Virus record (IMG/VR): IMGVR_UViG_3300035396_000367
Span: 27,738-91,737 of that record
From: a virus
Direction: 5' to 3' (one strand)
Length of the DNA: 64,000 nt
Below the pieces are notes generated by a model. The model saw only the letters and a program-made list of their open reading frames with translations, searched no databases and had not been told where the DNA came from. The position numbers and the translations under genes were made by a program. The stretch's first letter is position 1, and each line of letters opens with the position of its first letter. Shown here piece after piece: positions 21,801 through 59,408 of the stretch.

Positions 21801-24800
21801 TACTAAAGCATCCTCTGCCGCATAGTATGAGTCAACAATACCTGATGCCCCCATACCTGATAAAGCTGCTGACAGTTCAGTTATAGCTTTTATATCCGCA
21901 TCGTATTTTTTACCAGCCGACAAAGCATCGCTTATTGCTTTTACTTTCTCTAACCCACTTATGTAAGTTGTTAGCATAGCAGACGATTCTTCCCAGTTAC
22001 TACCCTGTAAGTTAGGATCTTCAAGTATTGATTGAACACGAGATAACTCAGTAGCAAACTCTGAGGACATCTTTTCATAGTTATTAAATAACTTAGAGTT
22101 CCCAATCTTTCTACCAACTTCTTCTAGCGTAGTTAATTTATCAGTCAACTGGTCTATACCTAACGACGAAGAGTCTTTAGCATACTGGGCTGTCATATCC
22201 GAAACTAATTTTGGATTAACATACTCGCTACCTGCCATACTTTGTTTTTTTGCAGTTGATATTACAGTCTTCCACTTATCCAAAGCGTCTGACCTTTGAT
22301 CTATGGAACCGCCAGCAAACGAAGGACCAGATGAGAATTTCTTTGCATCTGTACCAACGTAGCTTATTCGTTGAGAAATCCTATCATGGTCTGCACTATC
22401 TATTTTACGATATGACTCGTACACAGCATCTAGAGCACCTTGCATTTCTCTTACGTTTTTAAGTTCAAACAGTTGACGAGCTTCTAATTTCAACTCAAAT
22501 TTCAACTCAGGATTTTCACTAAACTTACCAATCTCGTCGTTTAAGTCTTTCACCCTGGAAGTAATGGCTGAAATCTTAGCACCAGTCTCATCAAACGCAC
22601 CACCCATACCTTCGTATACTTTTCCAAGTGCACTTGCTTCGGATAATGACCTACCTAATGTTAATTTAGAACTTCTCTGTCTCATCTTTTCTAACTCAAA
22701 GTTTGACTTACCTAGTTCTTCACCTAATATTTGTGCGCTTTCTTCCATCCTTTTTATTTCTGAGGAGATATCTTCCTTCTTTTTAGGATCTGTCTCTCTT
22801 TGTAAATTACCTTGTTGAACAGACTTCATCTTCTCTAATAAAAGAATCCTTTCTTTTATTGTACTTACATACTTCTCGGCAGCATCTATACGACCCTTAT
22901 CGTCATTGTAGTTTTGTATTCCACCACCTTTTATTGCGGAAGTAACAGTATTTATATTCGAAAATGCAGCACCTACATCCATAACTGACTGCTTCAAACT
23001 GTTTGCAACATCACCAACGATGTACATATTTTTCAGCATACTCGTTGTCATTGATTCAAACTTAACACTATTTTTGTCTATGGACATACCTAGCGATTCG
23101 AACTGCCCAATAATGAAATCTAAGTTTTTCTGAACTTTTTCTTTGTACTCTTTCATCTGTTCAGCATTACCGGCACTCTTTGATGCTTCATCAAATATCT
23201 TTGAGAACGTAGTAACTTCACTGTACTGCACGCCCAATTCAGCAAGTGTTTGTCCCAGCTGACGAATCTGGGTTAGTGCCTCTTTACCTGATGTAAAAGT
23301 GTTATCAAAAATATCTACTGCCAATGCTTTTTGAATAGAGTCTACTGATTTTTTAACAACTGATAAATCAATACTACCGAAAGCCTTAACGTACATACTT
23401 GTAAGCTCTTCCTGTAAATATTTACCGTAGTTCACTAGTTCAGGATCACCTGACTTTTTCATTACATCAATTGTCTCTTTTATGTTACCACCTGAACGAC
23501 CAACAGCCGCAGAAAGTTTTGTAAAGTTCTCACCTACACCCTCCGCAGAAACTTTACCCATCCCCTGAAATGCAGTAGCCATCTCACGTACAGCTGTTTT
23601 AAACTCTTCTTTTTTCTTAGAAATTAGGTCAGTTATTTTAAGGTACTGCTCCATCGCCTTAGCTTGTTCTTCAATACTTTTTTGCTGAGCGTCAGACCCT
23701 GCTGCACCTAAAGCACCATCCGCATCGTCCCCCATTTCCTTCATACTTTTCGACATAGTTGCCATGGTCTCTGACATAACCTGTAAGTTTCTTGGATCAA
23801 CACCTACAGCTTTAAATATCTCGAGGAATCCTTCAGCCTCTTTCGTACCACCCATTCCAGCCTTTTTCAGTCCTTCTTTTATAGCCTTTTGCATCCCTTC
23901 AGAGGATCTACCTCCAGACTTTTTAAACTCTTGCTCGATACTCGCTAATACTGTACCGAATGATTTTTTAGCTTTATCTCCACCTTGCTCCGATATCATC
24001 CCTTTATAAATAGCTTTCGCTGCGTCAACACCTATACCTCTGGCATTGTTGATGGCGATAACAGCACCCATGCTCTGTTGTGTCAATCCTAGCATTTCAC
24101 CAAGAGAGTTCTGACGTGATATCATCGCTAAGTCTGCACCACTATTCATGATGGCATTAGCTTCTGTATTTATATTTTTTATCGATACTAATAATTTTGC
24201 AAAAGTTTTTTCATTGCTTGTAGCACGTACAACTGATGTATCTGTAGAGAACGAACCTACTGTTTCATTTGCGGATATTGATGTTAGTGCTTTCTTAAAT
24301 ACTCCCTTAGCTGAGGATGCATCTTTCTCCATCCCCTCAGCTAAAGACTTGATCTTCGCGACCTCTTCCTTAGCTTTCATTACATGAGTGTACCTTTCAT
24401 GAATTTCTTTTGCTAGAGCTTCTCCACCCTTTTTATCGGATATCCCGTACTCAAATTTAACCTCTGCTTTTACAGATTCTATGTCTGTACCCTTACCCTC
24501 ATCTACCATTTTACCAAAGTACTTACCCGCCTGTTTACCAGCGTTTTGTGTATTGTTTGCCTTTTTCAAACCGGCAGTTGCATCCTCTATATCTTTTCTG
24601 GATTGATTAACTAATGATTCATAATCAGCTGTAACTTTTGCAAGGTACTCTTTCATTCCTTCAACGCTAAATGCGTCTTCAATTGTCTTGTCAACAACTG
24701 ATGAAACTTTAGAAGAACTAACACTTCCTGGCTTAATTGTTTCATTTATTTTTTTAAGAAGTTTACCAGGTAGGTCTGTGTTATTCTGAATGAAATCAGT

Positions 24801-27800
24801 AGCATACTCCATTAAATCAATACCATCTATCTCACCAGATATTTTTGATCCAACATCTTCTAATGACGCGCGTACTGAGTCTACGTAACCTTTTCCATAA
24901 ACACCTAAGTCTTCAGTTGTCTTCCCTGTTGAAGCAACTGATGCAGTTTTAAACAACTTCTTCCCTGGCTCATCCAGTAACCCTTTCTCGCTACTATATG
25001 ATAACTGGTCGACAACACTTTTCTTTCGAACAATAGCTACCTGCCCAGACTGCTCTTTAACAACACTGGACATCGCTGCATCTATCTTCACTGCAGCACC
25101 AAACAAGTCTCCATAATTTGCAACAATAGATCCTATATGTTTCGACATGTCCTCAAGATACCTATTGTAATCCGATAATTCAACATCACCAAAATTAAGA
25201 AACTCTTTTGATACGGAAGACATTTTTGAAAGTTTATTAACAGACTTGTCTATTGCTTTGTCTAATACTTCAAAAGTTTCTGTGAAAGCTTTTACTGATT
25301 TTTGAGCTATACCTAAAGTATCAGTGTACGACACACTAGGTCCTGCACCTATACTCTGAACTTGTTTAAGTTCACCTCCATCTCCCTTTGCAGCCGTATA
25401 CGCTTCATTAACGCTTGAATACTGTTTAACCATTTCTTCACTAGCATATTTGTCAACCTTTTTCTGATCAAGCTTTCCGTCTGTGAGAAGACTCTCTTTT
25501 GGACTCAAGTCTATTACGCTTATTTTATTATCTGTGTTTAACAAGTAACTTTGAACTTCTTTATATTCACCGTTAGCCTGCTTCACACGCTTCGTAAATA
25601 CAGCAAGTGTATTCTCTGTTATTTTTGCAGCCTTATCCGCATCCAACTTTACATTCTCTGCGATGCCAGCATACATTCCATTTAAGTCTGTCGATACGGA
25701 TACTGAACCACTTGCAAGAGACTCTGCCAGTTGGTTAGCTCTTTCCCTTAGAGCTTTGTCTGCACCTGGTGCCTTGATTACACTCTCGGCCAGTCTACTA
25801 GATAGTGCTGTCATCTCGCTTACCGGTTGAGAAACATCAGCATTTCTAATGTAGTTAGCAAGGTCTCCGCCAACCATTTTAGAAATCATTACTTTCAAAC
25901 CTTTCTCGTAATCTGTTCCAAATGCCTCGAGCTGTCTTGTCATATTTATTGTAAACGCTCCGGCAGTATCAGACTTCTCAAGAATAGTACTAAGTAAGTT
26001 TACGACTTGGCCAGAACCCCTCTCACCTGCTTTTGTAAACAAACTATCCATTTGCTCAATCGCATCGTTTATATACGCCTGTGAGCTTACGTATTCTTCC
26101 GTAGCTTTCTTTACTTCTTTTGATTTTTTACTAATTAACTTTTCATTACCTGATTCTTTAGCAACTGATAAAGCAGCTTCTGCTTGTGATTTATTAGTAG
26201 TTGCTTTTTGTAAATCCTCAATTCGAGATGTACCTAAACTCGCACCAAACAATGACGAGATACCCTCGTACCACTTACCAGAACCTTTTCTATTCATAGC
26301 AGTGAAAACATCGTCGATAGCATTCGCAAGAGATATAATATAATCAACCTCACGTGCTTCTTCAATATCACGTAATGTTTTTGCAAAAACATCTAAACTA
26401 CTCGCAGATTTTAAAACTGCGACACCATATGTTGTATACCCGGCAACTACACCTGGCATTATACCAGCTAGATCCTTTCTTAGTTTTAGTTCACGGTCCA
26501 ATGCCTTTTCGTTCAGATTTGAAGCGTTAGAAACTTTCGAAGCAGCAGAGACATAAGCTTCTAGTGCACCCTGATTTTCTGAAAGACTGTATCTATCCTT
26601 TTCAATGTCTTTTCGTCTACCGGCCATAGCCTTCGAACCTTTCACGTCGGTGTTTGCTTTAATCGCACCGGCTCCAACACCAATACCAGCAATAGCGGCT
26701 GCCACGGCTGCTGCAATAGCTACAGGAGGTATAGCCAGTGTACCTGCAGCTGCTGCACCTCCACCACCCGCTGCACCACCCGCGAATAAACCTCGTAGCC
26801 CTGCGAATAAACCACCCTTTACTGCAATGTCTCTACCTGTATCTTTCACTACATCCTTAGTCTTTTTAGATAAAGTTTCTTTTGTAGCTTTTGCTGCGGC
26901 CTCCCTGGCAAGTACATCTGTAGCCGCGTCACCAAGCTGTGAGGTTTTCTTAGATATTTTACCTTTACCAGTTGACATACTCTCTCTTATTTTCATAAGA
27001 GCTATTTCTTGTTGTAACAAAGAATTAACCGCTGCTCTCTCACCTACTTCGCTTTTAACAGAAAGATTTAAACCTTCTTGTAAAACTTTAGTTTGACCAA
27101 GGGCTACAGCCTCTTTGTCTATACCTGCAACACTTACATTTTTCAATGCAGCAAACTCTGCAGCAAGCTTTTTCGAATCTATAGTGTTCTTCTTCAGTAG
27201 GCCACCGATCAAGGAGAAAGCATCCAACTGTCCACCTGTTAAAAGCTTTAATGCTGTTGCAGCAACAGCTGTTGTTGTAACTACTGTACCAAGCCCAACA
27301 ACTACAGTCCGTACTCCACCAGGTAATTCATTTACTGTACTTAGGATACCTCGAATAGCTTTAGCACCACCATCTAACACCGGAAGAGTGAGTTGACCGC
27401 TAACCTGAACAACTTCACCCCATGTATTCTTCAGCGACTCTAATGTTCGTTTTGTACTTTCCATCGCAATCTGATTTTCAGCCATTGCGGAACCGTTTGA
27501 GTATAATGAATCTGTTGTTGCCTTTGTAACAATATCCCAGTTTTCGAACATCGCTGTTACAAATGAACCGTATCGTACTTGACCTAACGATAAAGCTATC
27601 TGCTGTTTCTGAGCGTCTGTTATATTATTCCAGCTACCTGCCAAATCGTTAAAAACATCCTGTGCATCTCTGTACTCTTGTGCTGTCTTACGTATGGATA
27701 TACCTACTGAGTTCAATGACTCCTCTGCTTTATCCGTACGCATATTTGTAAGCATCTGTTTCATTACACGACCAATTGTAGAACCACCCTTACGTGTAAC

Positions 27801-30800
27801 TTCTTGCATAGCAGCAACCATACCATTCAACCGATTAAACTCTAAACCGGATATCTTTGCTAAAGCACCAACTTGCTTAACTGCTTCACCTAAATCTTTT
27901 GCAGTAACCGCGTTCTTATTAGCAACATTATTCCAAGAATCAAGAATTGCCATAGACTCTTTTAAACTAAAACTGTACTGTCGTGTTGCCGCAGTAAGGT
28001 TATCCATCGCCTCTACTTGTGTCATGTCAGTTACGTTTGCAGCAACAGCTGTTGTCTTTGTTAGCGATGTCACCTCTGCTTGACCAAGACCCTGCCTAGA
28101 AAACTCTATTGCAGTGCCCATAACATCATCTATCGGACGAGCCATTTCCTGAGCAATACCGTATAGATCATTTTTAATTTTACCAAAGTCAGTGGATGCT
28201 TCGCTCATTACCTGTCGTAGTGTATTTACCTGCTCTTCAACAGAAAGCATTGCACCTACTGCCTGACGAGCCTGCGCTTGAATACCATAGAATAAGTATG
28301 AACCAGCACCAAATTTAGCAATCCTACCCATAACAGTTTCGAGCTGTTTAGCTAAACCACCACGGAGTGCATTAGTACTCTCCTCAATAGATGTAGTGAC
28401 CCTACCTTGAGAATCAATAACCATTTTTAATAATCCAATCTCTCTACCACGTATGTCTAGAATTTTTTCTGTCTGGATTATTTCCTTACTTAGAACATCA
28501 AACCCCTGACCTTTAAGATCAATAGCAACAGCAGCAGTTGTCTTTGCTCTTTTGTTAAAGTCTTGCATTTGCTCTTTTACACGACTTGTTTCTATTTCAC
28601 GTATTCGTGTCGGATCACCCGAGTTTATAGCAGAGTCATACTCAAATGCATTTTTAGAACTAGCTATACTAGCTTTAAGTCCATCATACTTTGCAAAAGC
28701 ATTAAATGCCTGGGACTGTTGCTCTGGTGTCTTAGCAACCTTACCCATTGCTGTAAGTGATGTAACATATTCTTTTTGAACCATTGCAAGTTCTTTAAGT
28801 GACTGAAGTCTCTCCTCTAAAGGAACATTCGCGTCACGAGTTGTCTTAGCTATTTGAGATACGGAGGATGCATGTTTACCTACCTCAGCAAAAAGCTGTT
28901 CGAATGTACGTAGCCCTTTAGGAGTTGCATCCATTCCGGATATTTTAATAAGCATCTTTTCGAGTTTCTCTAACTCAAGCTCTGCACTTTTTATTGCTGC
29001 CACACCAAATGTTTTGTCTGCACCCTGTATGTTTCTTAGTTTATCTAACTCTTCCCTGTACTCGGAGATACCGCGTTTAACTGATGAGATAGCCTCTTTT
29101 TTTGATTTATCTGTTGTAGCACTTTCAACAGCTATTCCAATAATCTTTTTGTTAGTAGCGGCCAGGTACGATAACTCTCTAGCGTATAGTCTTACTTCGG
29201 ATGCTTGATCTTTCCACAAAGAGTTTTTCTTTGTTGTAGCCATATTCTGTAATGACTCTTTTGCTTTATCGCTTGATTCTATTAGTTCCTTTAGAGAACG
29301 TTCAATGTCTTTTATTTTTAACTCTGTACCCATGTCAAGCGCACCGTCACCGGCTATCTTTTGCTTTAAGGCTTGTATCGTTTCTAGCCTACCCTTCAGT
29401 GTTGTACCTGCTTCAGCACCTTCTTTCGGTTCTAAATAATTTGATAAAGCACTACTACTGGATGACCTTTCTATAATATTTTTAGAAGAATCATTTGCAC
29501 GTCTCGCTTCTCTTTTTAAATATTTTGAAAGTTTATCTGCGTCACCTATTTCTGACAGTAAAGACTCATAGCTCTCACCTGTAACTTTCTTCCCAGGTGT
29601 TTTAACACCTGATGCTGTCTCAGCAGCTGCCGCATTTAATGTTGGAACACCGGAACTTGCTTTTGATAGTCTTGTTTTTATATCACAAACATCCTGGTCT
29701 ATTTGCTCAAGTGTGCGTTTAAGCATAGAACCACTTTCTGTTATTGCTTTAACAAGCTTATCACAGCACTCCCCAAAGCCTTTAGCTTCTTCTGAACCAG
29801 TTGCATACTTTTTATCTTCAGTTGCCTGGTTAATAACTTTAGCTTTTTCTGACTCCATTGCTGCACTTTTCTCAAGTAACTCGTCATCAGATATACTTCT
29901 ACCTTTAAATGAAGACATCTTAGAATATGCTGTTTTAGCGTCAAACGTATCCCCGAACTCCAAGCCTTTGGAAGCCAAAAACTCATCCAAGAATTTACCT
30001 TTTACAGATGAGTCACCGTTTTTAGATGAAGCTACTTCAGCTTCAAATCTACTTTTCACTTCGGGTTTATTCATATGTTCTTGGAAACCAAGGTCCTTTA
30101 CAATCGACATTGAAGTTCCTGCAAGCTGAACCTCTCTTTCTGCTTCAGCTATAGGCTTATCTACTTTAACAATTGTAGCTACACGATTTACTAACTCCCT
30201 TAAACTTGTTAAAAACGTATTGTCTGCAGCACTCATCGTACCTTTTGAGGAAGCTTCTCTAATCGCTGTCATACGTGATTCTAACTGTGCAGATAATTCT
30301 AGTTCTGTCCCTTTATTATTCTCACCAAGAAGACCTTCCGTATTTAAGCCCTTTACAAACTCCTTACGAGGTATGTGTACAATATCTGTATCTATACCTG
30401 TTATCTTCCCTAAAGATTTACCCCAGTCTGACTCGGGTATGCTTCTCTGGTATAATGCCTGTTGTGTAGCAGACTTCTCCGCAACTTCTGTTGGTGAAAG
30501 TGTTGATGTTTTGTAATCTCTTACCTTTACTCTGTAGCCATCTCCGTCCTTAACAGCTCGTGCCTCATCCACAGTACCTAGAGAAGCACCATCACTACTT
30601 CTATCCAGTTTTTGCTCTACCGCAACGTACCCAGCTTCTATCTCTTTAGCAAAGTCTATATGAGAAAGATTTTCCAACGATTTGTGCACATTCTTACCTA
30701 TCGCAGCAGACTCTGATTCCTTACCTGAAAAGTCACGTCCCATCACAGCACCAAACAATGATGATTTTCCGAACATACCCCGCGTAGCTATACTCTGCAC

Positions 30801-33800
30801 ACCAGAAGGAGTGAGACCGCTATCCTTAGTTCCGTACCCTTGAGTTGCTACCATATTTCTGATGCCTTCTGCATAAGCATCTTCCATATTAGCACCGGAT
30901 ACTGTTCCCTGAGATACAACGTCTGTATCATAAATTTTCGTTGCGAGTTTTGAGTCTACAAGATTTCTACCTGTTTCTGGATCACCGTACACAATTGACT
31001 TCTGCGCAAGTTCGCTCCCATTTACGTAGTTACCAACTTCTTTTGCTGTGTTTTTAAACCTGTACTTCAGAGCTGCCGCTACACTAAATTTATCTGGATC
31101 TATTTTTGTCCCAGGAGCAGTTTTACCGGATTCAATATTACTTTGAAGCATCTGCTCTTCTTGCTTCTTTAAAACTTCACGTGTCCATTGAATCTCACGG
31201 TGTATACTCGCTTCAATTGCTTCTCGTGTTTTTACGTCTACAGTTTCACCAAAAGATTCTATACTTGAAACAAGTTTATCCCTTAATCTTTTTACCAAAG
31301 CATCGACACGCTCTTGGCCACCACTTGTGTTTGTATCTAAATCAGAAGGTTTGATATCACCAAACACCAATTTAGAAGAAAATGCTTCCAGGTTTCTATC
31401 TAAACCTTGCTCTTTACTTGCAGTGATACCAGCCATTATTTTCTGAATTTCTTCAGGCCTGTTATCCCCGATTAGCATACTACCAGATACTCTAGCCAAA
31501 ACACTCTTATCGCTGGATAAATGAGACCTATCACCTTTCTCAGTTTTAGCTGTTATTTCAGACTCTGTGATATCCTGAATTTTACTATTTACTTGAGATA
31601 AACCAGACTTAGCCTGGTTACGTGTTCTCTCATCAAAACCAGTTGATACAACCCTACCTTGACTTGTTTTAGTATAAAGTTTTGCTGTATCAAGATTACC
31701 GCCACGGAACACATCTTTCGCTTTGGTTAAGTCTGTCAGCAATAATAACTGTGACTCATCCGCCTTATCTATCGCAAGAGACAGTGCACTTCTCGCATCG
31801 AGGAAGGACATACCTTTTTCATTTATTTCCGTGAGAACACTTACCGCATTGCCTTTTAATGTGTCCAATGCACTTTTGTTTTTCTTTGGCTTACTGTTCT
31901 GACCGATCTGTGATGCTGTTTCTATTTTAGACATTGCTGAGTAGGCACGCTTAGAATAAGCAGCCGACTCGTCATAATTTGCAGCTGCCTGGTCTATCCC
32001 TATAACTATCCCCTCCAGGTCTTTTGAGACACGTGCAGATAATTTATCAATCATAGAAACTAAATCGAATCTCTCTGCAGCTGGTGCACTTTTTAATTGA
32101 CCAATTGCAACTTTTAATTTTGCAAGGTTGTCTACTGCTTTAGTTCGCTTTGATAAAATAGTGGAAGCTGTTCCTGGACGTACACCAGATTCTACTTTTG
32201 CTAAGTTTGCTACGTTATCCAATACTGCAACATTACTATCAATGTCTGAAATTATTGCTGCCAGTTCTTTATCAGGACCTTCTTTACTTGAGAATGCCGA
32301 CACAACCCTGTCGCCTATATTCTTAAGAATAGACTCGTCTATTGCTGCTACCTTGTCTGCAACCTCTGTAAAGTCCCGAGTGGAAGCGGAGTTCCCTTTT
32401 AGTTGAGCATCTGATTGTACCCTTACCATTAGTGTTCTAATAAACTCTTGATACTTCGGACTATTCTGTCTACTAGCACCTTTTACTTTTTTCAGTCTTT
32501 CATCCACAGAACCTTTCTCTGGACTAGACAAACCCTTGTAGTCTTTACCATACATTATTTTTGATAAATCTTCCGGAAGTCTTTCTAATTCTGCTACTGT
32601 AAAACCTTCGTACGCTGCTTTATTCTCCGGTGACTCTAGGCTAGTACGCTCTTTCTCTGTAAGATCGTTATAATCCTTTCCCAAAATCTGTTTAGCTTTG
32701 AACTTTTTAAGCTCATCAAAGAACTCTTGCGTAGGCGAGTATATACCTCTCTCACTTCCAAGAAATTCAGAGTCCTTATACTCCATCTTCCCGGACGTAC
32801 CCTTAACCTCAACTTTTTTCTGGAAGTATACTGCCATCTGGTCTGACAGTCTTCTAATAGCATCTGCTTCGCTTTTAGATACCTCTAGCTTCCTTCCATT
32901 TTTAACTAAGTCTCCTGACTCATCAAACTCACCTATTGATGTCCCCATACTCTTAAACGCTTTTACAGTTTCTTCGATTGAGGTTGGCTGAACTGTAAGA
33001 GGCTCTGAACGTAAGTTTCCTTCCTTATCCATCCTATGTTTGTACTTCAGTTTGTCAATTGACACACCTTTGAATACATCCAGCATGTTATTTATAGTTC
33101 TCTCGTAGTCGTTGTCCTTCGCAGATCTGTCACGCGACCCCTCACTCGCATGGAAACCACCTATAGATTTTAGTTCATCTAACTGTGGGTCAGATGACTT
33201 CATGCTACCAGGCTCTCCTGTCTCATTTCGTATCTCATCACTACTCATACCCGATTTTGTGATGTAAGTTGTTTTATCAGGGTCTTCTTTTGTTCGTTGC
33301 ACTAACTCTAAGTCTTTTGTTACACTTATAATGTACTTCTTTATACGAGCTAAAGCTTCTTGCTCTCTCTTCTTTAAATCAAAGGCCGGCATTTTACCAC
33401 CTTCAACTTTGGATACATCAGAGTACGCTTTTGCAGGCATAGTTACGTACTCGTTCCATATTGCATCTATCGATTGCTGTACATCCGCTGAGGATAGCTG
33501 CCCTTGATCTATAGCCGCGTTTAATCTTTGCTCAGGTGTGAGCTTCTCGGCAATACCTCTCAGTCTATCCTCGCTGAAAGCATTTATTAAAGCACCATCT
33601 ACACTCTGCTTAGTTTCATCCCACTTACGAGATACTGATGTAGAAGAATCCTTCCCACGTGAACCTGAAACTCCAACTACTTTTTTTACAAATTCCCCTA
33701 TATTTTTCTCAACTACTGAAACAGCTTCTTTCGCGGAGCTTATCTCTTTAACAGGCGCATTAGAACTCTTTAGTTGATCTAACTTCACAGTTGCTGCGTC

Positions 33801-36617
33801 TAAAGATTCTTTTAAGGATTTGGCCTCGGATATCCTTTCAGTCAGTAGAGATTCTTCCTTACCCGTTGTACCTGACGTGCTACTTCCTTTTAAGTTATCC
33901 AGTCTTCTACTGAAAGCTATGTAAAGATTAGAAAACCTTTCATACACGTCTTTCGAACCTTGATATGGAGATTGTTCCCGTACTTGAACCTGGTCTTGCT
34001 GGTCAGGTAACTCCCGCGTATGTGTACCGTATAACCCTGTATTTGTTAGTAAACTCTCAATCTGACTTAAGGAGCCTTCCTTAACTGGCTCATATGAACC
34101 CACTGTACCTCTAGACCTATTCCTAAGATATGCGTCTAGTACGTCAGAAAACTCTGATAAACGAACTAGCAGACTACTAACCGACTTAAAGTTTTTATCT
34201 TTTAAATCTCCTGTCGATACATCTATCTTTTTATCTGATAAATGCTGTTTCATACCCTCTATCTCTGCTGTAACATCCTGTATAAATTCTTGCGTGTCTG
34301 CAAAATACTCAGGATTTTCAGTGCCCTTATCACTTATCTCTTTAGACATCCCTTTCAGCTTAGCTAGTATCTTTAACGCAGCGTTATCAACACCCCCTTT
34401 TCTCTTAAAGTCTACTACACCATTTTTTGAACCTTTAGCTTCCTTCGCATAATCCTGGTACAACTCTTTGTACGGGTTTCCTTGCTGCATTTTTAGCAAA
34501 GATTCTGTCTCACCTTTATGTGCAGACTCCTCTGTTTGATACCTATTGAACAAGTCAAGCGTAGGGTCTACTCTAACATCCTTAGATGACTCCACTAATA
34601 CTTTTGCATAATTTGATTCTGTCTCAGGAGTTTTATTTGACGATATCATTCCACGTGCTATCTTATCCGAAAATACTTTTGATAGAGTTTCTCCGAATAT
34701 AGCATTCTTATTTTTTCGTGGATCCATTTGTACTGTACTTAAACCCTCTTTTACAGTTGACTGTATGTGGCTCACAGACTCTGTAAATATTTTACCAATT
34801 TCTGCAGTTTTATCTATTACAAATTTTGTAGCTGTGTCCACACCTTTAAACATAGTCTTCTCTACATTACCAACTGCCGAAGAAATATCTGCTTTATTAA
34901 AAGTGATATGAGTAGTAACTGTACCCAAAGCATCAACCATCTCAGCTATATGTACTTGTACTTTTTCACTTAACCCTTTAGATATTTCAGAAAGTTTACC
35001 CTCTATTACTGCTTTGTTTGAAGAAACGGAACCCTGCATAGCAAATGGTATACCCTCAGATGCAACAGATGCTTTCGACTCTATGTCTTTTCTTTTCTCT
35101 GTCGCCTTAGCTACAACCTTCTCCTGTGCATTTATCTTTGCAGACAGCTGAGGCATCTTCTCTGGTGTTAGTGGATTTGAAGGATTTACTTGAGCAGACT
35201 TTTCGATACGACTCTGCATTTCTTTTTTTAGCTTTTCTAAGTTATCTTTTGCAGACTTTTCATATTCCTGGTACGATGAAGTGTCACGTTGTTTATCACT
35301 TACAATATTCTCAATGTATGCGGGTGTTGCTTTAGTGAAATTATTAAAAGACTTTGATAACGATAAATCAGGGGACTTGTACATAGCAGAAGTATCCAAC
35401 GCTTTTTTTACGTCTAACTCTAGCTCTGATATTGCTTTATTTATTTTGTCAATTCGAGTAAAGTACACTTTTCGAACTTTGTCAGTAAGATTATCCGATT
35501 TTAGAAGTTCTTGTTTTTCAAACTTCTCTTTTGTTAATTCTGTTTTTTTAGAATAGGCTTCCTCTATTGTTTTCTGTGTCATTGAATGACCAGCACCTTG
35601 ATTCTGCATTTCACGGTAATTATTTAGCTGAGCATCTCTTAACGAGAATGTCTGTTTTACAGCTTCTCTTCCTCTGGATGTGTCCCCTGCGTATCTGTCG
35701 AAATCAGCAGGTTTTCTATTTGATTGTTTTTCTTTTTTTAAAGATTCTAAACCCGCGACACCAGCGTCGGTGTTTAGCGCACCTTTAGATTTTAAAAAAT
35801 CTGCGTACTTGCCTAACGCTTCATCCACCTGACTACCAAGCTTGCTATACTCGGGTGCACCGATGCTTGAAAGTTTTGTAAAAGATTCTGCTATAACTCT
35901 TTGCAGTCTTTCTCCGTTTACACCAGTTACAGCAATCAACTGAACAAGTAGAGATTGTAATTGATTTAAGTCTGACATCGGTTTAGCAACCGTATCTTTA
36001 TGAATTTCTTCAGTTCCGGAAGCTACGGACTGACCTTGACGATAAAACCCTGCTGATTTTAATTCTTCCCTTACAACCTCTCCAACATGCTTATCGCTGC
36101 TTCCAGCTTTAGAAAGTATTGTACCTATTTTTTCAATCGGCTTTAATCTGTCTTCAAGTGACTTAACTACTTTTTCGAACTGTTGAATTGAACGAGCTGT
36201 AATTTTCCCATCTTCTGAAGTTTTAACGGCTGATTGAGTTTGCTCTACTAATTTAATTAGAGCGTCCACTTTTTTGGAATCTTCACTGCCAGGTTTAACT
36301 TCCATGTTGGAAGCCATTGACTTTATTTTTTCAAATACGGATGAATCCGGTGAAAGTTTTCCACCACCGTCTTGAAGCTGATTCTCCAGCTTAGCTAGAA
36401 GGTGCTCCATCTTTGCTGAATTTTGATACTTCCCTTTCTTAGAAACATCTCCAAGAAATTTACGCATTTCCTCGAAAACTTTCCGATTCTCTGCTGTGAA
36501 CTTCTCAAGAGAATCTCCGTCGCGATCTTTATCTTTACTTGCTAGTTTATCAAGAACTTCTTTTGTTCCAACTAACACTTCTTCGAGCAACACTAAAGGG
36601 CCAAAATTCATATCCAT
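15822..36617 (-). CDS. Giant tail tape measure protein (~6,930 aa) with embedded PD-(D/E)XK nuclease domain
   Basis: After tube and chaperones; helical K/E/S/A-rich; TP901-type TMP core at ~27400-28350 (EFSRQG..AANVTDM..LDSWNNVANKNAVTAKDLGEAV..VTRKGGSTIG); hydrophobic segments ~26660-27320; GG..PAVLHPGEVVIP motif ~20400-20520. ATG 36617 has AAGGTG RBS (track start GTG 36626). Confidence 0.9.
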   Translation of the reverse strand: MDMNFGPLVLLEEVLVGTKEVLDKLASKDKDRDGDSLEKFTAENRKVFEEMRKFLGDVSKKGKYQNSAKMEHLLAKLENQLQDGGGKLSPDSSVFEKIKSMASNMEVKPGSEDSKKVDALIKLVEQTQSAVKTSEDGKITARSIQQFEKVVKSLEDRLKPIEKIGTILSKAGSSDKHVGEVVREELKSAGFYRQGQSVASGTEEIHKDTVAKPMSDLNQLQSLLVQLIAVTGVNGERLQRVIAESFTKLSSIGAPEYSKLGSQVDEALGKYADFLKSKGALNTDAGVAGLESLKKEKQSNRKPADFDRYAGDTSRGREAVKQTFSLRDAQLNNYREMQNQGAGHSMTQKTIEEAYSKKTELTKEKFEKQELLKSDNLTDKVRKVYFTRIDKINKAISELELDVKKALDTSAMYKSPDLSLSKSFNNFTKATPAYIENIVSDKQRDTSSYQEYEKSAKDNLEKLKKEMQSRIEKSAQVNPSNPLTPEKMPQLSAKINAQEKVVAKATEKRKDIESKASVASEGIPFAMQGSVSSNKAVIEGKLSEISKGLSEKVQVHIAEMVDALGTVTTHITFNKADISSAVGNVEKTMFKGVDTATKFVIDKTAEIGKIFTESVSHIQSTVKEGLSTVQMDPRKNKNAIFGETLSKVFSDKIARGMISSNKTPETESNYAKVLVESSKDVRVDPTLDLFNRYQTEESAHKGETESLLKMQQGNPYKELYQDYAKEAKGSKNGVVDFKRKGGVDNAALKILAKLKGMSKEISDKGTENPEYFADTQEFIQDVTAEIEGMKQHLSDKKIDVSTGDLKDKNFKSVSSLLVRLSEFSDVLDAYLRNRSRGTVGSYEPVKEGSLSQIESLLTNTGLYGTHTRELPDQQDQVQVREQSPYQGSKDVYERFSNLYIAFSRRLDNLKGSSTSGTTGKEESLLTERISEAKSLKESLDAATVKLDQLKSSNAPVKEISSAKEAVSVVEKNIGEFVKKVVGVSGSRGKDSSTSVSRKWDETKQSVDGALINAFSEDRLRGIAEKLTPEQRLNAAIDQGQLSSADVQQSIDAIWNEYVTMPAKAYSDVSKVEGGKMPAFDLKKREQEALARIKKYIISVTKDLELVQRTKEDPDKTTYITKSGMSSDEIRNETGEPGSMKSSDPQLDELKSIGGFHASEGSRDRSAKDNDYERTINNMLDVFKGVSIDKLKYKHRMDKEGNLRSEPLTVQPTSIEETVKAFKSMGTSIGEFDESGDLVKNGRKLEVSKSEADAIRRLSDQMAVYFQKKVEVKGTSGKMEYKDSEFLGSERGIYSPTQEFFDELKKFKAKQILGKDYNDLTEKERTSLESPENKAAYEGFTVAELERLPEDLSKIMYGKDYKGLSSPEKGSVDERLKKVKGASRQNSPKYQEFIRTLMVRVQSDAQLKGNSASTRDFTEVADKVAAIDESILKNIGDRVVSAFSSKEGPDKELAAIISDIDSNVAVLDNVANLAKVESGVRPGTASTILSKRTKAVDNLAKLKVAIGQLKSAPAAERFDLVSMIDKLSARVSKDLEGIVIGIDQAAANYDESAAYSKRAYSAMSKIETASQIGQNSKPKKNKSALDTLKGNAVSVLTEINEKGMSFLDARSALSLAIDKADESQLLLLTDLTKAKDVFRGGNLDTAKLYTKTSQGRVVSTGFDERTRNQAKSGLSQVNSKIQDITESEITAKTEKGDRSHLSSDKSVLARVSGSMLIGDNRPEEIQKIMAGITASKEQGLDRNLEAFSSKLVFGDIKPSDLDTNTSGGQERVDALVKRLRDKLVSSIESFGETVDVKTREAIEASIHREIQWTREVLKKQEEQMLQSNIESGKTAPGTKIDPDKFSVAAALKYRFKNTAKEVGNYVNGSELAQKSIVYGDPETGRNLVDSKLATKIYDTDVVSQGTVSGANMEDAYAEGIRNMVATQGYGTKDSGLTPSGVQSIATRGMFGKSSLFGAVMGRDFSGKESESAAIGKNVHKSLENLSHIDFAKEIEAGYVAVEQKLDRSSDGASLGTVDEARAVKDGDGYRVKVRDYKTSTLSPTEVAEKSATQQALYQRSIPESDWGKSLGKITGIDTDIVHIPRKEFVKGLNTEGLLGENNKGTELELSAQLESRMTAIREASSKGTMSAADNTFLTSLRELVNRVATIVKVDKPIAEAEREVQLAGTSMSIVKDLGFQEHMNKPEVKSRFEAEVASSKNGDSSVKGKFLDEFLASKGLEFGDTFDAKTAYSKMSSFKGRSISDDELLEKSAAMESEKAKVINQATEDKKYATGSEEAKGFGECCDKLVKAITESGSMLKRTLEQIDQDVCDIKTRLSKASSGVPTLNAAAAETASGVKTPGKKVTGESYESLLSEIGDADKLSKYLKREARRANDSSKNIIERSSSSSALSNYLEPKEGAEAGTTLKGRLETIQALKQKIAGDGALDMGTELKIKDIERSLKELIESSDKAKESLQNMATTKKNSLWKDQASEVRLYARELSYLAATNKKIIGIAVESATTDKSKKEAISSVKRGISEYREELDKLRNIQGADKTFGVAAIKSAELELEKLEKMLIKISGMDATPKGLRTFEQLFAEVGKHASSVSQIAKTTRDANVPLEERLQSLKELAMVQKEYVTSLTAMGKVAKTPEQQSQAFNAFAKYDGLKASIASSKNAFEYDSAINSGDPTRIREIETSRVKEQMQDFNKRAKTTAAVAIDLKGQGFDVLSKEIIQTEKILDIRGREIGLLKMVIDSQGRVTTSIEESTNALRGGLAKQLETVMGRIAKFGAGSYLFYGIQAQARQAVGAMLSVEEQVNTLRQVMSEASTDFGKIKNDLYGIAQEMARPIDDVMGTAIEFSRQGLGQAEVTSLTKTTAVAANVTDMTQVEAMDNLTAATRQYSFSLKESMAILDSWNNVANKNAVTAKDLGEAVKQVGALAKISGLEFNRLNGMVAAMQEVTRKGGSTIGRVMKQMLTNMRTDKAEESLNSVGISIRKTAQEYRDAQDVFNDLAGSWNNITDAQKQQIALSLGQVRYGSFVTAMFENWDIVTKATTDSLYSNGSAMAENQIAMESTKRTLESLKNTWGEVVQVSGQLTLPVLDGGAKAIRGILSTVNELPGGVRTVVVGLGTVVTTTAVAATALKLLTGGQLDAFSLIGGLLKKNTIDSKKLAAEFAALKNVSVAGIDKEAVALGQTKVLQEGLNLSVKSEVGERAAVNSLLQQEIALMKIRESMSTGKGKISKKTSQLGDAATDVLAREAAAKATKETLSKKTKDVVKDTGRDIAVKGGLFAGLRGLFAGGAAGGGGAAAAGTLAIPPVAIAAAVAAAIAGIGVGAGAIKANTDVKGSKAMAGRRKDIEKDRYSLSENQGALEAYVSAASKVSNASNLNEKALDRELKLRKDLAGIMPGVVAGYTTYGVAVLKSASSLDVFAKTLRDIEEAREVDYIISLANAIDDVFTAMNRKGSGKWYEGISSLFGASLGTSRIEDLQKATTNKSQAEAALSVAKESGNEKLISKKSKEVKKATEEYVSSQAYINDAIEQMDSLFTKAGERGSGQVVNLLSTILEKSDTAGAFTINMTRQLEAFGTDYEKGLKVMISKMVGGDLANYIRNADVSQPVSEMTALSSRLAESVIKAPGADKALRERANQLAESLASGSVSVSTDLNGMYAGIAENVKLDADKAAKITENTLAVFTKRVKQANGEYKEVQSYLLNTDNKISVIDLSPKESLLTDGKLDQKKVDKYASEEMVKQYSSVNEAYTAAKGDGGELKQVQSIGAGPSVSYTDTLGIAQKSVKAFTETFEVLDKAIDKSVNKLSKMSSVSKEFLNFGDVELSDYNRYLEDMSKHIGSIVANYGDLFGAAVKIDAAMSSVVKEQSGQVAIVRKKSVVDQLSYSSEKGLLDEPGKKLFKTASVASTGKTTEDLGVYGKGYVDSVRASLEDVGSKISGEIDGIDLMEYATDFIQNNTDLPGKLLKKINETIKPGSVSSSKVSSVVDKTIEDAFSVEGMKEYLAKVTADYESLVNQSRKDIEDATAGLKKANNTQNAGKQAGKYFGKMVDEGKGTDIESVKAEVKFEYGISDKKGGEALAKEIHERYTHVMKAKEEVAKIKSLAEGMEKDASSAKGVFKKALTSISANETVGSFSTDTSVVRATSNEKTFAKLLVSIKNINTEANAIMNSGADLAMISRQNSLGEMLGLTQQSMGAVIAINNARGIGVDAAKAIYKGMISEQGGDKAKKSFGTVLASIEQEFKKSGGRSSEGMQKAIKEGLKKAGMGGTKEAEGFLEIFKAVGVDPRNLQVMSETMATMSKSMKEMGDDADGALGAAGSDAQQKSIEEQAKAMEQYLKITDLISKKKEEFKTAVREMATAFQGMGKVSAEGVGENFTKLSAAVGRSGGNIKETIDVMKKSGDPELVNYGKYLQEELTSMYVKAFGSIDLSVVKKSVDSIQKALAVDIFDNTFTSGKEALTQIRQLGQTLAELGVQYSEVTTFSKIFDEASKSAGNAEQMKEYKEKVQKNLDFIIGQFESLGMSIDKNSVKFESMTTSMLKNMYIVGDVANSLKQSVMDVGAAFSNINTVTSAIKGGGIQNYNDDKGRIDAAEKYVSTIKERILLLEKMKSVQQGNLQRETDPKKKEDISSEIKRMEESAQILGEELGKSNFELEKMRQRSSKLTLGRSLSEASALGKVYEGMGGAFDETGAKISAITSRVKDLNDEIGKFSENPELKFELKLEARQLFELKNVREMQGALDAVYESYRKIDSADHDRISQRISYVGTDAKKFSSGPSFAGGSIDQRSDALDKWKTVISTAKKQSMAGSEYVNPKLVSDMTAQYAKDSSSLGIDQLTDKLTTLEEVGRKIGNSKLFNNYEKMSSEFATELSRVQSILEDPNLQGSNWEESSAMLTTYISGLEKVKAISDALSAGKKYDADIKAITELSAALSGMGASGIVDSYYAAEDALVSFENVLKSVLSTVDIKSKEGREFLSQMFDVSIEANSMRIGKSINQTIDQLKKYSAIRKLYSAKGLSNTSLDMEESVVSEVSTAVDTLRDSYYKLTKQKEMFEKVAETDKSGDVSKKLVEISEKAKEAGDMLGKFETIWTKVQTTVGEVSAFKELQKSLNKTFAEVQVFGDSMNTAGDAADIYKDTIVSLIDVFTQGGKLSWDKVDDSAKSAIGGVQQYYSLMLDVQKANERMYSTVDSTVNRFNDFINSDLTDAESVITGITDMFASINSDARSNLMNDVGENLKKAFSKKVPIDEIRVSADASIKELLNSVDLLSVDLTNLLPALKEISAVSGVSLKDIVDKQKSALIEKIAATPDSISKDQMKSTLEQWEKILPNVSGPGGAGGSLGEDTFFQDLKIGFTDLIQGLANEFGVQLKGKKHAQGAVYMATGGGVVNGYYGSDMRNHEAYVAGEIPAVLHPGEVVIPARYAGSPGVQQIASRLPKYGSDGRRVSAASGSVISAAGGSASYMKSMVESIEVEVNSGEMAKLDETTKKEIEVSKELSIGLEKFSKELSRLRKDQDKSFFKFTEIMDSVKVMGSSDPVVEVTPGPVSVPVSTKSLNLSYIPETKQSNEFMLPEKREVRKESALDMVKTGNITTAVYKAGNVLSSKLAEMKIIASGFGKYVSKNVKANISEYKAKREVTAATKKSNKIAEEQNLKNFDVKSYVNKGGFGTSYSLIRGMKKYESSQELEQSKKFYEKRALNLRPEREKLQEGRSKAFKTGDFDTFFSKSKEINKNLAESAVAFGKETKFKLQSMRSDTSRFRQDVRSVLKGMDKEAVEAMRDSWSERLKKSKAMGAQGASKEDKKMYRAEQSEVRKNLFFKEMDEKRKIAGTAVKEQGGNMGLAFLSGMSGNSELYEYARGKASDDNKKESFEKVESKSLEEQKEKEGAKVDIKALAGAVQSGSSSSKSTAATSASSSKGAMSGDKGAAAADIFSMLGAATDKFEEQIREKIWDGILGTRSNYAEMKEKGLDKYVAKGEGDREDLQEEMAKNRKLGRETGETVGGAIGSIWGPLGKAIGTQMGQAIGVQVSSILTRAFNKETKQERKFREAQNQTKALTLQLESARMIESAASLLYKSVDDLLGGMSDIMSAVASDLGAFANNTAWVQMRDMFETDNGLSVSGGQLVADTATIKSNMGFNDFKAKQSSLYSSEDWSSFATFDEGMKEGAWWDEEAEKRKGTAIGNSKDISAKLGLDENLSEAEAMLYASMQEARYSVEQVSESFDTLSERVQGKIDKIAEIWTAAGGDVKEFGKGLSKAALATMEFIQVFRATQDGGREFDFQGAMDRMFLKTGSRTMQVDQLNTDKSRIASEKTALENEASAAYKTNDELKEEAKKGLLWTTADEERYQTAILLQTQQQSEYATKIKEKAEALKAIDDQIAALSTANVGDVQKFVDDMQKITGAVNKMMDGATDTKRAWDLIGSALDSAKAKNAGFYESLKGAASGLGMVGDWVSKLRKNTSGGFDFSTSGNKKFKDMSSGSSSFVSDIQSGNFMNQTDLTNYLLSNNIAKSSVTGSNTALSQSQLQQIASLDKGVADQVGNMGVIELTRALANYRVSSANETSDVYKFQTDSFVSVIATGMDNFVYTAEVKFSSIENMFNEWTSKNKLKIEGINKAFDEFRSFAENIDGSAFAGSVSGMGAGNVLDAYNAMPKQMTQIFSETARGNLELTDEIKTFYGEQIQLAAAQADALSIASAAQSVSRVGVVGRISTGLSGTSMTATQITTALTPLNAAITAGVSLSPNELDGLIGVITDQLGNSTEGLALTAELISVNNDVMSINSRAADQQAEVVSLTKEANDLLRKQYELYKSEHGKATDEKSFIQANLDALRNLQQSFNRDTGGVYTTDKGEVDRISEAEDLYLRSVGNGQFEIAKTLQEFSEMYGQKVVSGPKDISTWSQVRPVTNNFTIQIDADFIDPSQLDADRQRSLAMVIRGALEDENLRYSE
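30330..30830 (-). other. RecB-family PD-(D/E)XK nuclease domain within the TMP
   Basis: Ordered motifs TPS; IGKNVHKSLE; VAVEQKL; GTVD; VRDYKTS; TQQALYQ. Confidence 0.75.
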
Positions 36618-36632
36618 GGTGTACACCTTTCT

Positions 36633-37697
36633 CTATCTTTTTCTCGGTCCAATTCCCCTATCGCCTGCTTCACTCATTGGATTACCAGATGAACGTTCTG
36701 CTTTAGCAACAGCTTCCTTATGCTTTGCGAGGTAAGGCGAACCCTCCGAGAAGAGTATCTCTTTTTCCTCACCGAAAACAAACAGGTCCTGCATTCCAGA
36801 ACCCTTATTACCGGCAGCATTCTTATTCCTTTCCATTTCCTTTTCTTTGGACTTTTTCTCTACCCATTCGTCCAATTTAGTGTCATCGTTAAGAAGCCAG
36901 TCAGGAGCCTGATACGCTTCTGTAACATCGTCATAATACATTAACCAAGAAACAAGATGTGTCTGAGGCCTTGTCCAACCGGCTGTTGGCCCTGTGAACA
37001 TCTGGCTACCACCACTCATCGGAATACCGAAAAATGGTGCACCTGTTTTCTTTGATGCTCTCCATTTTATCCTGACTTCCGACTCTCTTGCAATAGCACG
37101 AAGGGTACCTTGATCAAAACTACGAATGAATGAAATAAGATGGCTGATCACCAGTCCACGGAGCATATCGTCTCTTTCGTTGACGTATTCCTCTGGTGTT
37201 TTCCATATGCATGGAACGCAGAACTTTGCGTAAAAAGATACTTCGGCCTGTTCAGCTAAATACTCCGCAGTGAGCTGGTAGAATGAATCCCTCTTGTAAG
37301 ATATCTCGTAGTACCGGGTATCAAAGTCTCTTAGCTCTTCTTTTTTCTTCTCAATTATCGAAGAATGTGCGAAGCTTAGCTTTTTAAGCTGTGCTCTGAT
37401 GACTGTCCGTTGTGCATCAATTTCCTTGAGCTCAGCCTTTTCACGTTCGCTGAAGACCTCTAATCTAGCAATAACATCTGCCTCGAGCTCTTCTCGCGTA
37501 CGTACTTTGTCTTCCTTTGCCTCTCTCATAGTTTCAAAGTAAATACGCCTACCCTCCATCTGCATATTCTGCGAAGGGTAATTCATATAACCTTGAAACT
37601 CTCTACCGGAACCGTTCCTAACCTTTAGGTATCTTCTACCACTCGCTATCTCAAAGAAGTAAAGCTGAGCTTCCTCCGATGTTAAGCGAGTAGACAT
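36633..37697 (-). CDS. Putative tail assembly chaperone, long form (gpGT-like; 354 aa)
   Basis: Immediately upstream of TMP; helical; N-terminal part resembles the adjacent 223-aa protein. Confidence 0.55.
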   Translation of the reverse strand: MSTRLTSEEAQLYFFEIASGRRYLKVRNGSGREFQGYMNYPSQNMQMEGRRIYFETMREAKEDKVRTREELEADVIARLEVFSEREKAELKEIDAQRTVIRAQLKKLSFAHSSIIEKKKEELRDFDTRYYEISYKRDSFYQLTAEYLAEQAEVSFYAKFCVPCIWKTPEEYVNERDDMLRGLVISHLISFIRSFDQGTLRAIARESEVRIKWRASKKTGAPFFGIPMSGGSQMFTGPTAGWTRPQTHLVSWLMYYDDVTEAYQAPDWLLNDDTKLDEWVEKKSKEKEMERNKNAAGNKGSGMQDLFVFGEEKEILFSEGSPYLAKHKEAVAKAERSSGNPMSEAGDRGIGPRKR

Positions 37698-58398: not shown

Positions 58399-58681
58399 GC
58401 GTATGCTGTCTCAATCCGAAATAGACAAGTTTACGAAAGCCAGCCAGCTTATTGACGAAGTCGAAGGTAGAACTATACCCAAACGGAAAACTACTGAAAT
58501 CAAAGCACCGATTAAACAGAGTGTTGTTTCAGTACCAAGACTATCGAGACGACCCGATAGAGATACAAGGTACATATGTGCGTGTTCCTGGAAATTCTGC
58601 GACAAGGTAAGTCTATTAACCCAAACCGGCAAAAAATATTTAGTACATTGTAAGGAGTGTGGCACCTATGCTGCGATATGA
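58388..58681 (+). CDS. Zn-ribbon protein (97 aa)
   Basis: YICACSWKFC...VHCKECG. Confidence 0.6.
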   Translation: MPHERMLSQSEIDKFTKASQLIDEVEGRTIPKRKTTEIKAPIKQSVVSVPRLSRRPDRDTRYICACSWKFCDKVSLLTQTGKKYLVHCKECGTYAAI

Positions 58682-59408
58682 ACCACTTGAAATAACCTGC
58701 TTTAAAGATCTAACATTCGACGAACCTAACCACAGGTACTTCTACGCAGGTTACGAGTTAATTTCCGTCACCACTGTTATAAAAGAATTTCACGAGAAAT
58801 TCGACCCGGAAGTACGGTCTAAAAACTGTTCGCTGCAGCGGAAAGGGTTTCATCCCGACTGGATAATGCAGCTATGGGAATGCAATAAGATATTCAAAGG
58901 CATTCGTGGAACAGAGTTCCACCTTTACGCGGAGGTTTTCCTCAAGTCAGGCCTTAAACTTCCATTCAACACGCCTATTGCGCACCGTGTCGTTCAGTTT
59001 CATAAATTCATTGCTGCCATACCAAACCTTAAACCGGTAGCGATAGAGCTAAGAATTTTCTCTACTCGGTGGAAAGTTGCAGGTACTATCGACAATATTT
59101 TCCAGGATATTAACACTGGGCTCTACTATATCATTGACTGGAAGACTGATGATACAATGGAGTACGTTGGTTTTGATAATAAAATGATGTTTGAGCCTTT
59201 TCAGAACTTACCAGACTCAAACTTCTATCATCACTGCGTACAACAAAATATTTACAAACACATCATAGAAGAATATGTCGGTATTAAAATATCTGACTGT
59301 TTTCTGGCGCATTTCCCTATGGAGGAGAAATTTGACATACTTAAGTGTATTGAAATAGACAGATCAATCTTCGATGATGCCTTTGTTAAACTTGGAAAAA
59401 AACTATGA
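58668..59408 (+). CDS. PD-(D/E)XK (RecB-family) exonuclease
   Basis: FDEPNHRY, SVTTVI, RGTEFH, AIELRI, AGTID, IIDWKT, QQNIY; ATG 58668 follows AAGGAG. Confidence 0.88.
   Translation: MLRYEPLEITCFKDLTFDEPNHRYFYAGYELISVTTVIKEFHEKFDPEVRSKNCSLQRKGFHPDWIMQLWECNKIFKGIRGTEFHLYAEVFLKSGLKLPFNTPIAHRVVQFHKFIAAIPNLKPVAIELRIFSTRWKVAGTIDNIFQDINTGLYYIIDWKTDDTMEYVGFDNKMMFEPFQNLPDSNFYHHCVQQNIYKHIIEEYVGIKISDCFLAHFPMEEKFDILKCIEIDRSIFDDAFVKLGKKL

Follow-up and report, generated by a model that had tools for sequence, protein, structure and literature searches.

Tape measure proteins (TMPs) have long been regarded as passive rulers of phage tails, equipped at most with a cell-wall enzyme. The Tmp of mycobacteriophage TM4 has peptidoglycan-hydrolase motifs inside it (PMC1796659), and the 5,002-amino-acid TMP of Thermus phage P23-45, gp96, published as defining an 'extremely long' tail of ~800 nm, carries in its N-terminal part a working virion RNA polymerase (vRNAP), which, in its authors' proposal, is injected and functions at the entry pore (Chaban et al., Nat Commun 2024, PMC10770324). 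A tape-measure-related effector, Tme, of the contractile injection system of Streptomyces davawensis bears an endonuclease domain with demonstrated activity (Nagakubo et al., Nat Commun 2024, PMC11126660), and polyvalent proteins and other enzymes are injected together with phage DNA (Iyer et al., 2017, PMC5512222). Here we analyse a window of 64,000 nucleotides from an uncultured phage (IMG/VR virus record IMGVR_UViG_3300035396_000367, positions 27,738 to 91,737 of that record, which measures 91,737 bp and has a CheckV completeness of 49%), whose giant TMP gene encodes, in frame, a predicted nuclease domain of the RecB-family PD-(D/E)XK type. Unless a contig is named, nucleotide positions are those of the window, and residue numbers are those of the TMP.

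The TMP described here resembles P23-45 gp96 in being a giant protein with an N-terminal extension that bears a DNA-directed enzyme (here a predicted one). The two differ in the enzyme itself: gp96 has the DFDGD two-barrel polymerase motif at residue 779 and no RecB motif set, whereas the present clade has the nuclease domain and no conserved DxDxD motif, and the word 'nuclease' does not occur in the P23-45 paper (PMC10770324). With Tme it shares a TMP-like protein, loaded in a tail-like tube, that carries a nuclease domain; Tme, however, belongs to a cell-encoded injection system rather than to a phage, and has its nuclease at the C-terminus, with an unrelated fold of the EndA / DRGH-HNN (beta-beta-alpha-metal) type. 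As in TM4 Tmp, an enzymatic module lies in frame within the TMP and would be used at entry, but the TM4 module acts on the cell wall, whereas the fold predicted here points to nucleic acid as substrate and would imply action in or at the cytoplasm. Polyvalent proteins are likewise pre-made enzymes, delivered with the DNA and acting before gene expression, as proposed here; their survey does not include tape measure proteins (the word 'tape' does not occur in PMC5512222), while in the present case the TMP would be the carrier and has one recognisable catalytic domain. Literature searches for a PD-(D/E)XK, RecB or Cas4 nuclease embedded in a phage TMP found no description of one. Because the TMP-fused polymerase of P23-45 has already been published, the domain is a new cargo on a known principle, that of the TMP-fused enzyme, and not a new kind of system; a preliminary description of the locus, which took peptidoglycan hydrolase to be the usual enzymatic cargo of TMPs and saw here a candidate for an undescribed system, overstated its novelty in this respect.

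The host protein and its landmarks are the following:

15822..36626, minus strand: TMP gene, 6,934 amino acids in a single frame without interruption, the largest open reading frame (open reading frame list and translation)
26991..28907, minus strand: conserved TMP core including PhageMin_Tail, residues 2574-3212 (Pfam, and 39% identity to the TMPs of relatives L006 and L009)
26652..27308, minus strand: two hydrophobic membrane-type segments after the core, residues 3107-3126 and 3290-3325 (hydropathy scan; rich in Gly, Ala and Val)

For PhageMin_Tail (PF10145), residues 2832-3013 scored 92.8 bits, the cut-off being 33.2, and eight PHROG families of the category 'tail length tape measure protein' matched residues ~2600-3800 (best phrog_4211, E 5.5e-63). 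The gene is located downstream of the terminase, portal, minor head and major head genes, and large tail open reading frames come after it. To judge from the above-threshold core domain, the position in the structural module and the hydrophobic segments, the 6,934-residue frame is a genuine phage TMP. An independent Logan contig, from a run that is probably the source itself (a microbial mat metagenome), spans 16701-36700 with two substitutions and no insertions or deletions, so that a frameshift artefact of one assembler does not account for the giant frame. Annotated TMPs of Bacillus and Lactococcus phages in culture share 27-31% identity with the core, whose closest cultured carriers are siphophages of these two groups, with TMPs of 2,792-3,080 residues that have only ~440 residues ahead of the core and lack the RecB motif set. 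The TMP analysed here has ~2,570 residues ahead of the core, an N-terminal extension that is absent from the cultured relatives and houses the nuclease domain:

30339..30779, minus strand: predicted RecB-family PD-(D/E)XK nuclease domain, about residues 1950-2096 (Pfam, PHROG, ESM Atlas and AlphaFold2 model)
30672..30701, minus strand: helix motif IGKNVHKSLE (G1977, H1981, E1985), of which IGKNVH, from residue 1976, occupies 30684-30701
30612..30626, minus strand: strand 1 motif VAVEQ (E2004), from residue 2001
30567..30578, minus strand: motif II, GTVD (G2017 and putative catalytic D2020), from residue 2017
30507..30521, minus strand: motif III, RDYKT (predicted catalytic D2037 and K2039; VRDYKTS), from residue 2036
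30450..30464, minus strand: helix motif QQALY (Q2055, Y2059), from residue 2055

Between residues 1976 and 2059 the motifs run in the order G-x3-H-x3-E, E, G-x-V-D, D-Y-K-T and Q-x3-Y, and together they supply a complete putative active site (H1981, E1985, E2004, D2020, D2037, K2039, Q2055 and Y2059). When the whole TMP was shuffled 20,000 times, 3 shuffles contained the complete ordered pattern and 19 its core (GxhD ... [DE]xK[TS] ... QxxxY); both patterns had been devised after the sequence was seen. PF12705, scanned against all six frames of the entire 91.7-kb record, matched the TMP domain and no other locus, with a collinear weaker match on the GKNVH helix. No cysteine is present in residues 1950-2096, nor within the first 2,600 residues of the L006 and L009 TMPs, and the four-cysteine iron-sulfur pattern of Cas4/AddB (PF01930) is lacking; since it has no cysteine, the domain is not a Cas4 or AddB in the strict iron-sulfur sense. 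The five TMP peptides quoted in the preliminary description are all present in the translation, in the order given there and all within 30330-30830. Its placement of the domain at residues 1935-2100 was right as to location and slightly wide as to limits (about 1953-2096), and of its assignment to the RecB/AddB/Cas4 family the RecB-like part stands, while Cas4 or AddB proper, with their iron-sulfur cluster, do not.

Curated profile libraries and language-model features pointed to the same superfamily. The sole Pfam match of the domain was PDDEXK_1 (PF12705; E 0.0044, 17.4 bits), which covers motifs II and III, positions 131-167 of the model being aligned to the RDYKT stretch. In PHROG, the exonuclease family phrog_69 matched the domain with E 2.6e-4, and one of the equivalent TMP domains from the relatives matched phrog_298 (E 2.1e-6) and phrog_69 (E 9.6e-4). 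PDDEXK_1 was also the best match of the L009 domain, which outscored that of the present phage (E 2.3e-4, 21.6 bits). Among the 30 nearest clusters in the ESM Atlas, 25 were PDDEXK_1 (top score 0.96), and when this family was skipped the remainder were DUF2800, PDDEXK_3, Dna2, DUF3799, Cas4 and YqaJ, all of the PD-(D/E)XK superfamily. A hidden Markov model (HMM) of the exonuclease family built here scored the core domains above at least 99.8% of shuffles, yet with 3-4.5 bits, and aligned the GxxxH helix in all three TMP lineages; applied to full-length TMPs it returned nothing useful. With single sequences or shallow profiles, hhalign gave alignments that were collinear and not significant. 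NCBIfam gave no match to the domain, and a single-sequence search of the PDB with it returned a designed helical protein alone. The three-sequence profile picked up an OB-fold chain of replication protein A (4gnx_B, E 0.014) in the PDB, a weak match that we rejected as probably spurious. We file the domain as 'RecB-family-like fold and active site', at best a diverged member of the family.

The relatives were reached through the gene that precedes the TMP gene:

36633..37697, minus strand: 354-amino-acid gene directly upstream of the TMP gene, the syntenic marker that led to the relatives (no Pfam or PHROG match)

Homologues of this gene with 46% identity are found directly ahead of giant TMPs in four contigs (L004, L005, L006 and L009). 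These represent two further lineages, L005/L006 (180,316 and 97,539 bp, nearly identical; L005 is IMGVR_UViG_3300024265_000030, and this 180-kb relative is 96% complete) and L004/L009. The TMP cores of L006 and L009 are 39% identical to that of the present phage, and in both lineages the motif set recurs 380-590 residues upstream of the core, as GTKIH..LE, VTEQ, GRID, VDIKT and QISAY in L006 and as GTDIH..VE, MVEQ, GIAD, IDIKT and QLARY in L009. The relatives' domains are ~25% identical overall to that of the present phage. The TMP of the 96%-complete relative (L011, L012, L076; G002:C1:101944-121245) measures 6,433 codons, so that both it and the 6,934-residue TMP exceed that of P23-45. The textbook ruler ratio for TMPs is ~0.15 nm of tail per residue. 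At this ratio, the tails of the clade would be near 1 micrometre long, unless the N-terminal extension lies outside the ruler.

Residue conservation was assessed in an alignment (A7) of 51 sequences, comprising the three TMP-lineage domains and 48 phage exonucleases. G1977, H1981, G2017, D2020, D2037 and K2039 are invariant in all 51 (G68 and D71 for motif II, D88 and K90 for motif III in A7 numbering), E1985 is nearly invariant, and Q2055 and Y2059 (Q106 and Y110) reach at least 90% conservation in A7, with no variation among the three TMP lineages. The E-Q of VAVEQ is invariant in the three TMP lineages (alignment A5), and its E corresponds to the one conserved in the exonuclease family, with an offset of one column in the MAFFT alignment. 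Fourteen columns are invariant in the three TMP lineages, and 10 of them coincide with columns at least 85% conserved in the 48 exonucleases (hypergeometric p 4e-8, in an alignment that was built jointly). A catalytic set kept while the rest has diverged is the pattern that selection for catalysis predicts, as read from these alignments. The identity of the domain, its embedding in frame and the conservation of its position and catalytic residues in three lineages are established, and the conservation of D/D/K in homologous TMPs, which had been put forward as a check of the claim, turned out positive in both lineages found.

Beyond these lineages the domain is an orphan at the sequence level. 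A phmmer search with it against 1.84 billion representative proteins found only itself, as did a word-indexed search of long proteins with TMP region 1850-2250. No sequence homologue of the domain was detected in an index of 5.8 billion proteins, and the domain alone against proteins of 110-352 amino acids gave nothing at E <= 10. There was no tblastn match for this domain or that of L009 in 50,697 phage records, no hit in pattern scans with the domain over IMG/VR and Joint Genome Institute (JGI) metagenome contigs, and no megablast match for a 5-kb stretch. When the TMP core or the upstream gene served as query against IMG/VR, JGI metagenomes and GTDB genomes, no lineages beyond the same two were returned. 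A two-sequence HMM made from the L006 and L009 domains failed to pick out the domain of the present phage, and PF12705 gave no match in the records of two relatives other than L009.

The AlphaFold2 model computed on A7 has a predicted local distance difference test score (pLDDT) of 71.8 overall and ~90 over residues 70-140, with the order alpha-beta-beta-beta-alpha-beta. Compared with 48,161 chains by VIA-align, its top matches were the R2 restriction-like endonuclease (Z 7.1) and Cas4 SSO0001 (4ic1, Z 7.0), followed at Z 5.5-6.9 by two Cas4-Cas1 complexes, McrC, MGME1, ACE1, a phage exonuclease, RecE, RecB, AdnA and Dna2, the values for MGME1, RecE, RecB, AdnA and Dna2 being 5.5-6.4. Foldseek, which the preliminary description had named as a check, returned no significant match for the model in the PDB and BFVD (nothing at E <= 0.001), and its weak rows were almost all PD-(D/E)XK nucleases, in line with the fold expected there. 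Taken with the Pfam, PHROG and motif evidence, the central claim of that description, a RecB/Cas4-like PD-(D/E)XK domain with its catalytic set intact, in frame inside a true TMP, is upheld, and we regard the assignment of fold and family (RecB-type PD-(D/E)XK) as very probably right.

The phage also encodes a free-standing enzyme of the same superfamily:

58659..59408, plus strand: stand-alone exonuclease, 249 amino acids, in the early/replication region

It matches the exonuclease family phrog_298 (E 7.1e-19, PHROG) and has orthologues in relative phages (L018, L019). Its motifs RGTEFH, AIE, AGTID, DWKT and QQNIY occur in the same order as those of the TMP domain, as had been noted beforehand, and BLASTP between the two was not significant. 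The TMP domain and the phage RecB/Cas4-like exonucleases (PF12705; phrog_298, phrog_69) thus have in common the ordered motifs (GxxxHxxxE helix, E strand, GxhD, D-x-K-T, QxxxY), the six residues G, H, G, D, D and K that are invariant in the 51 sequences, and the predicted alpha-beta-beta-beta-alpha-beta core; like the TMP domain, the phage's own exonuclease lacks the four-cysteine iron-sulfur pattern. In contrast, the exonucleases are free-standing proteins of ~250 residues from the replication module, whereas the TMP domain is a core of ~145 residues within a 6,934-residue virion-type protein, lacks an N-terminal region of ~80 residues that the stand-alone enzymes possess (A7) and scores below the Pfam threshold. 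A separate exonuclease retained for intracellular work at a later stage speaks for a TMP copy with its own, early role. A stand-alone exonuclease with 95% identity to this one (P0003) is encoded on a 17.5-kb JGI contig. Because of this identity, a very close relative of the phage must be present in a second data set; no TMP fragment of the relative carrying P0003 turned up.

Taken together, these data lead us to read residues ~1953-2096 as a small, iron-sulfur-free RecB-family PD-(D/E)XK domain with a complete active site, which is likely to be catalytically active, and to propose that a preformed nuclease probably enters the cell together with the phage DNA. The TMP C-terminus lies at the tail tip in the published orientation, and TMPs are believed to leave the tail together with the DNA (bioRxiv 10.1101/2024.12.10.627806); the N-terminal extension is therefore the head-proximal part. 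The domain would be packed in the virion as part of the TMP, inactive because unable to fold or to reach DNA in the tail tube. At infection it would be expelled with the TMP, the N-terminal part of which would be the last to exit, immediately before the DNA, and the domain would refold at the entry site, where it could carry out metal-dependent cutting or resection ahead of all phage gene expression. Resection or trimming of ends is typical of RecB-family enzymes. A DNA end would be the likeliest substrate: the domain may process the leading end of the phage genome itself, serving circularisation, recombination-primed replication or escape from end-dependent host nucleases, or else it may attack resident DNA. 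The preliminary description had likewise suggested a virion-delivered nuclease acting ahead of gene expression, which is plausible. We put the probability of the whole delivery-and-action scenario at roughly 0.55. Its more specific version, in which a clade of micrometre-tailed phages preloads an end-processing nuclease that is stored unfolded in the tail lumen, released ahead of the genome and trims ends before gene expression, is tentative and somewhat doubtful.

A number of observations weigh against this interpretation. In Pfam, the domain stays below the gathering threshold of 22 bits both here (17.4) and in L009 (21.6), and the L006 domain has no PDDEXK_1 match. The three-sequence profile found no nuclease in the PDB, hhalign of the three TMP domains against a template of 48 exonucleases reached a P no better than 0.0058, and as no pairwise score between the domain of this phage and those of L006 and L009 was significant, their homology rests on position and motifs. 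From the single sequence, AlphaFold2 gave no confident fold (pLDDT 36). A7 includes true exonucleases, which makes the model built on it partly circular, a consistency check and not independent proof, and a Z of ~7 counts as 'middling' in VIA-align's own calibration. At L005:15261-15271, two small changes that compensate each other introduce a TAG in frame where the nuclease domain begins; the TMP is thereby divided into parts of 1,409 and 5,023 codons, and an ATG lies 13 nt past the stop. The nearly identical L006 is intact. The TAG may reflect a sequencing error or a real polymorphism, or may hint at a separate product from the nuclease onward. Finally, TMPs are generally described as trimers, and three folded domains of ~150 residues would hardly fit side by side in the lumen of a tail tube.

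The domain might have the nuclease fold and nonetheless act as a non-cutting DNA-end binder or pilot module, which would grip or protect the leading end of the genome, or tether the TMP to DNA in the neck. Cas4-derived proteins have reportedly been recruited as structural nucleic-acid binders in viruses. The domain lies in the head-proximal part of the TMP, near the place of the DNA end in 80alpha-type necks, and 80alpha gp44 is cited as an ejected DNA-protecting protein (10.1101/2024.12.10.627806). However, binding alone would not need D2020, D2037, K2039, E2004, Q2055 and Y2059, all of which are invariant in three lineages at ~25% identity, and we consider such a role unlikely. It is similarly improbable that the nuclease works in the producing cell, in late host-DNA breakdown or recombination, or as a separate or proteolytically released N-terminal product, and is absent from the mature tail or irrelevant in it. 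That the N-terminal ~2,570 residues are an add-on missing from the 2,792-3,080-residue TMPs of cultured relatives would suit this explanation, as would the difficulty of picturing a folded domain stored in the tube and the L005 TAG, with its ATG 13 nt later, which makes two products conceivable. Against these stand the stand-alone exonuclease of the same superfamily, already encoded for intracellular work, the fusion that stays in frame in three diverged lineages, and the precedent of the P23-45 vRNAP, the sole experimentally studied N-terminal TMP enzyme, which is a virion component used at entry.

Had the motifs come together by chance in a protein of great length and simple composition, with no nuclease at all, the sub-threshold scores throughout the curated libraries and the weak HMM-HMM and PDB sequence searches would be as expected. 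This explanation is close to refuted by the rarity of the pattern in shuffles (3 of 20,000), by the independent agreement of Pfam, PHROG and ESM features on one superfamily, and by an independently diverged orthologue that outscores the domain of this phage, with the hallmark residues being the very ones conserved across lineages. A selfish insertion in the TMP gene, either a homing-type PD-(D/E)XK endonuclease or an intein-like element, is barely credible, although PD-(D/E)XK homing endonucleases exist and nuclease genes are said to lie often at exchange boundaries in phages: the domain occupies an equivalent site in three lineages and has diverged along with its flanks, it shows no break in composition, it is in frame with no separate start, and Pfam over the whole protein found no Hint, intein or other domain besides PhageMin_Tail.

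If the delivery of a nuclease by the TMP is correct, this would be a second class of DNA enzyme, after the P23-45 polymerase, to enter the cell before the first phage gene is read. The genome would be readied for circularisation or recombination-primed replication, or end-dependent host defences would be disabled. The question bears on how linear phage genomes survive host end-dependent nucleases and circularise in the first seconds of infection, on whether phages hit resident DNA or defence systems with pre-made enzymes, and on how a 4-nm tube can store an enzyme that is able to fold. The 'tape measure as a delivery vehicle for DNA enzymes' may then be a general strategy of which the P23-45 polymerase was the first known case, and annotators would have reason to seek catalytic islands within very long TMPs. 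As the phage is uncultured and the domain has no sequence relatives beyond its own clade, the claim calls for biochemistry.

Several further features of the region were noted. An RNA polymerase in the N-terminal extension was considered and rejected, as Pfam found no polymerase domain in this TMP and the clade has no conserved DxDxD motif. The lone DxDGD-type match, DRDGD at residues 32-36 (36519-36533), is too near the N-terminus, is missing in L006 and L009, and is probably due to chance. In the cultured phages nearest in TMP core, the gene directly ahead of the TMP gene is annotated as a tyrosine recombinase/integrase, an odd location for such a gene:

L074:9159-10166: recombinase/integrase-annotated gene of Bacillus phage vB_BcoS-136
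L075:9128-10114: recombinase/integrase-annotated gene of Bacillus phage FADO

The equation of the 354-residue gene (36633-37697) with this Bacillus-phage 'integrase' at the same position was rejected, the two having no similarity. On the other side of the TMP gene, two very large open reading frames lie downstream of it and of a 684-amino-acid gene:

5377-13773: open reading frame of 2,798 amino acids
989-5377: open reading frame of 1,462 amino acids

A PHROG search gave no match for the 1,462-residue frame or for the 684-residue gene. The large open reading frames after the TMP presumably encode the tail tip, hub and fibre proteins of a giant tail.

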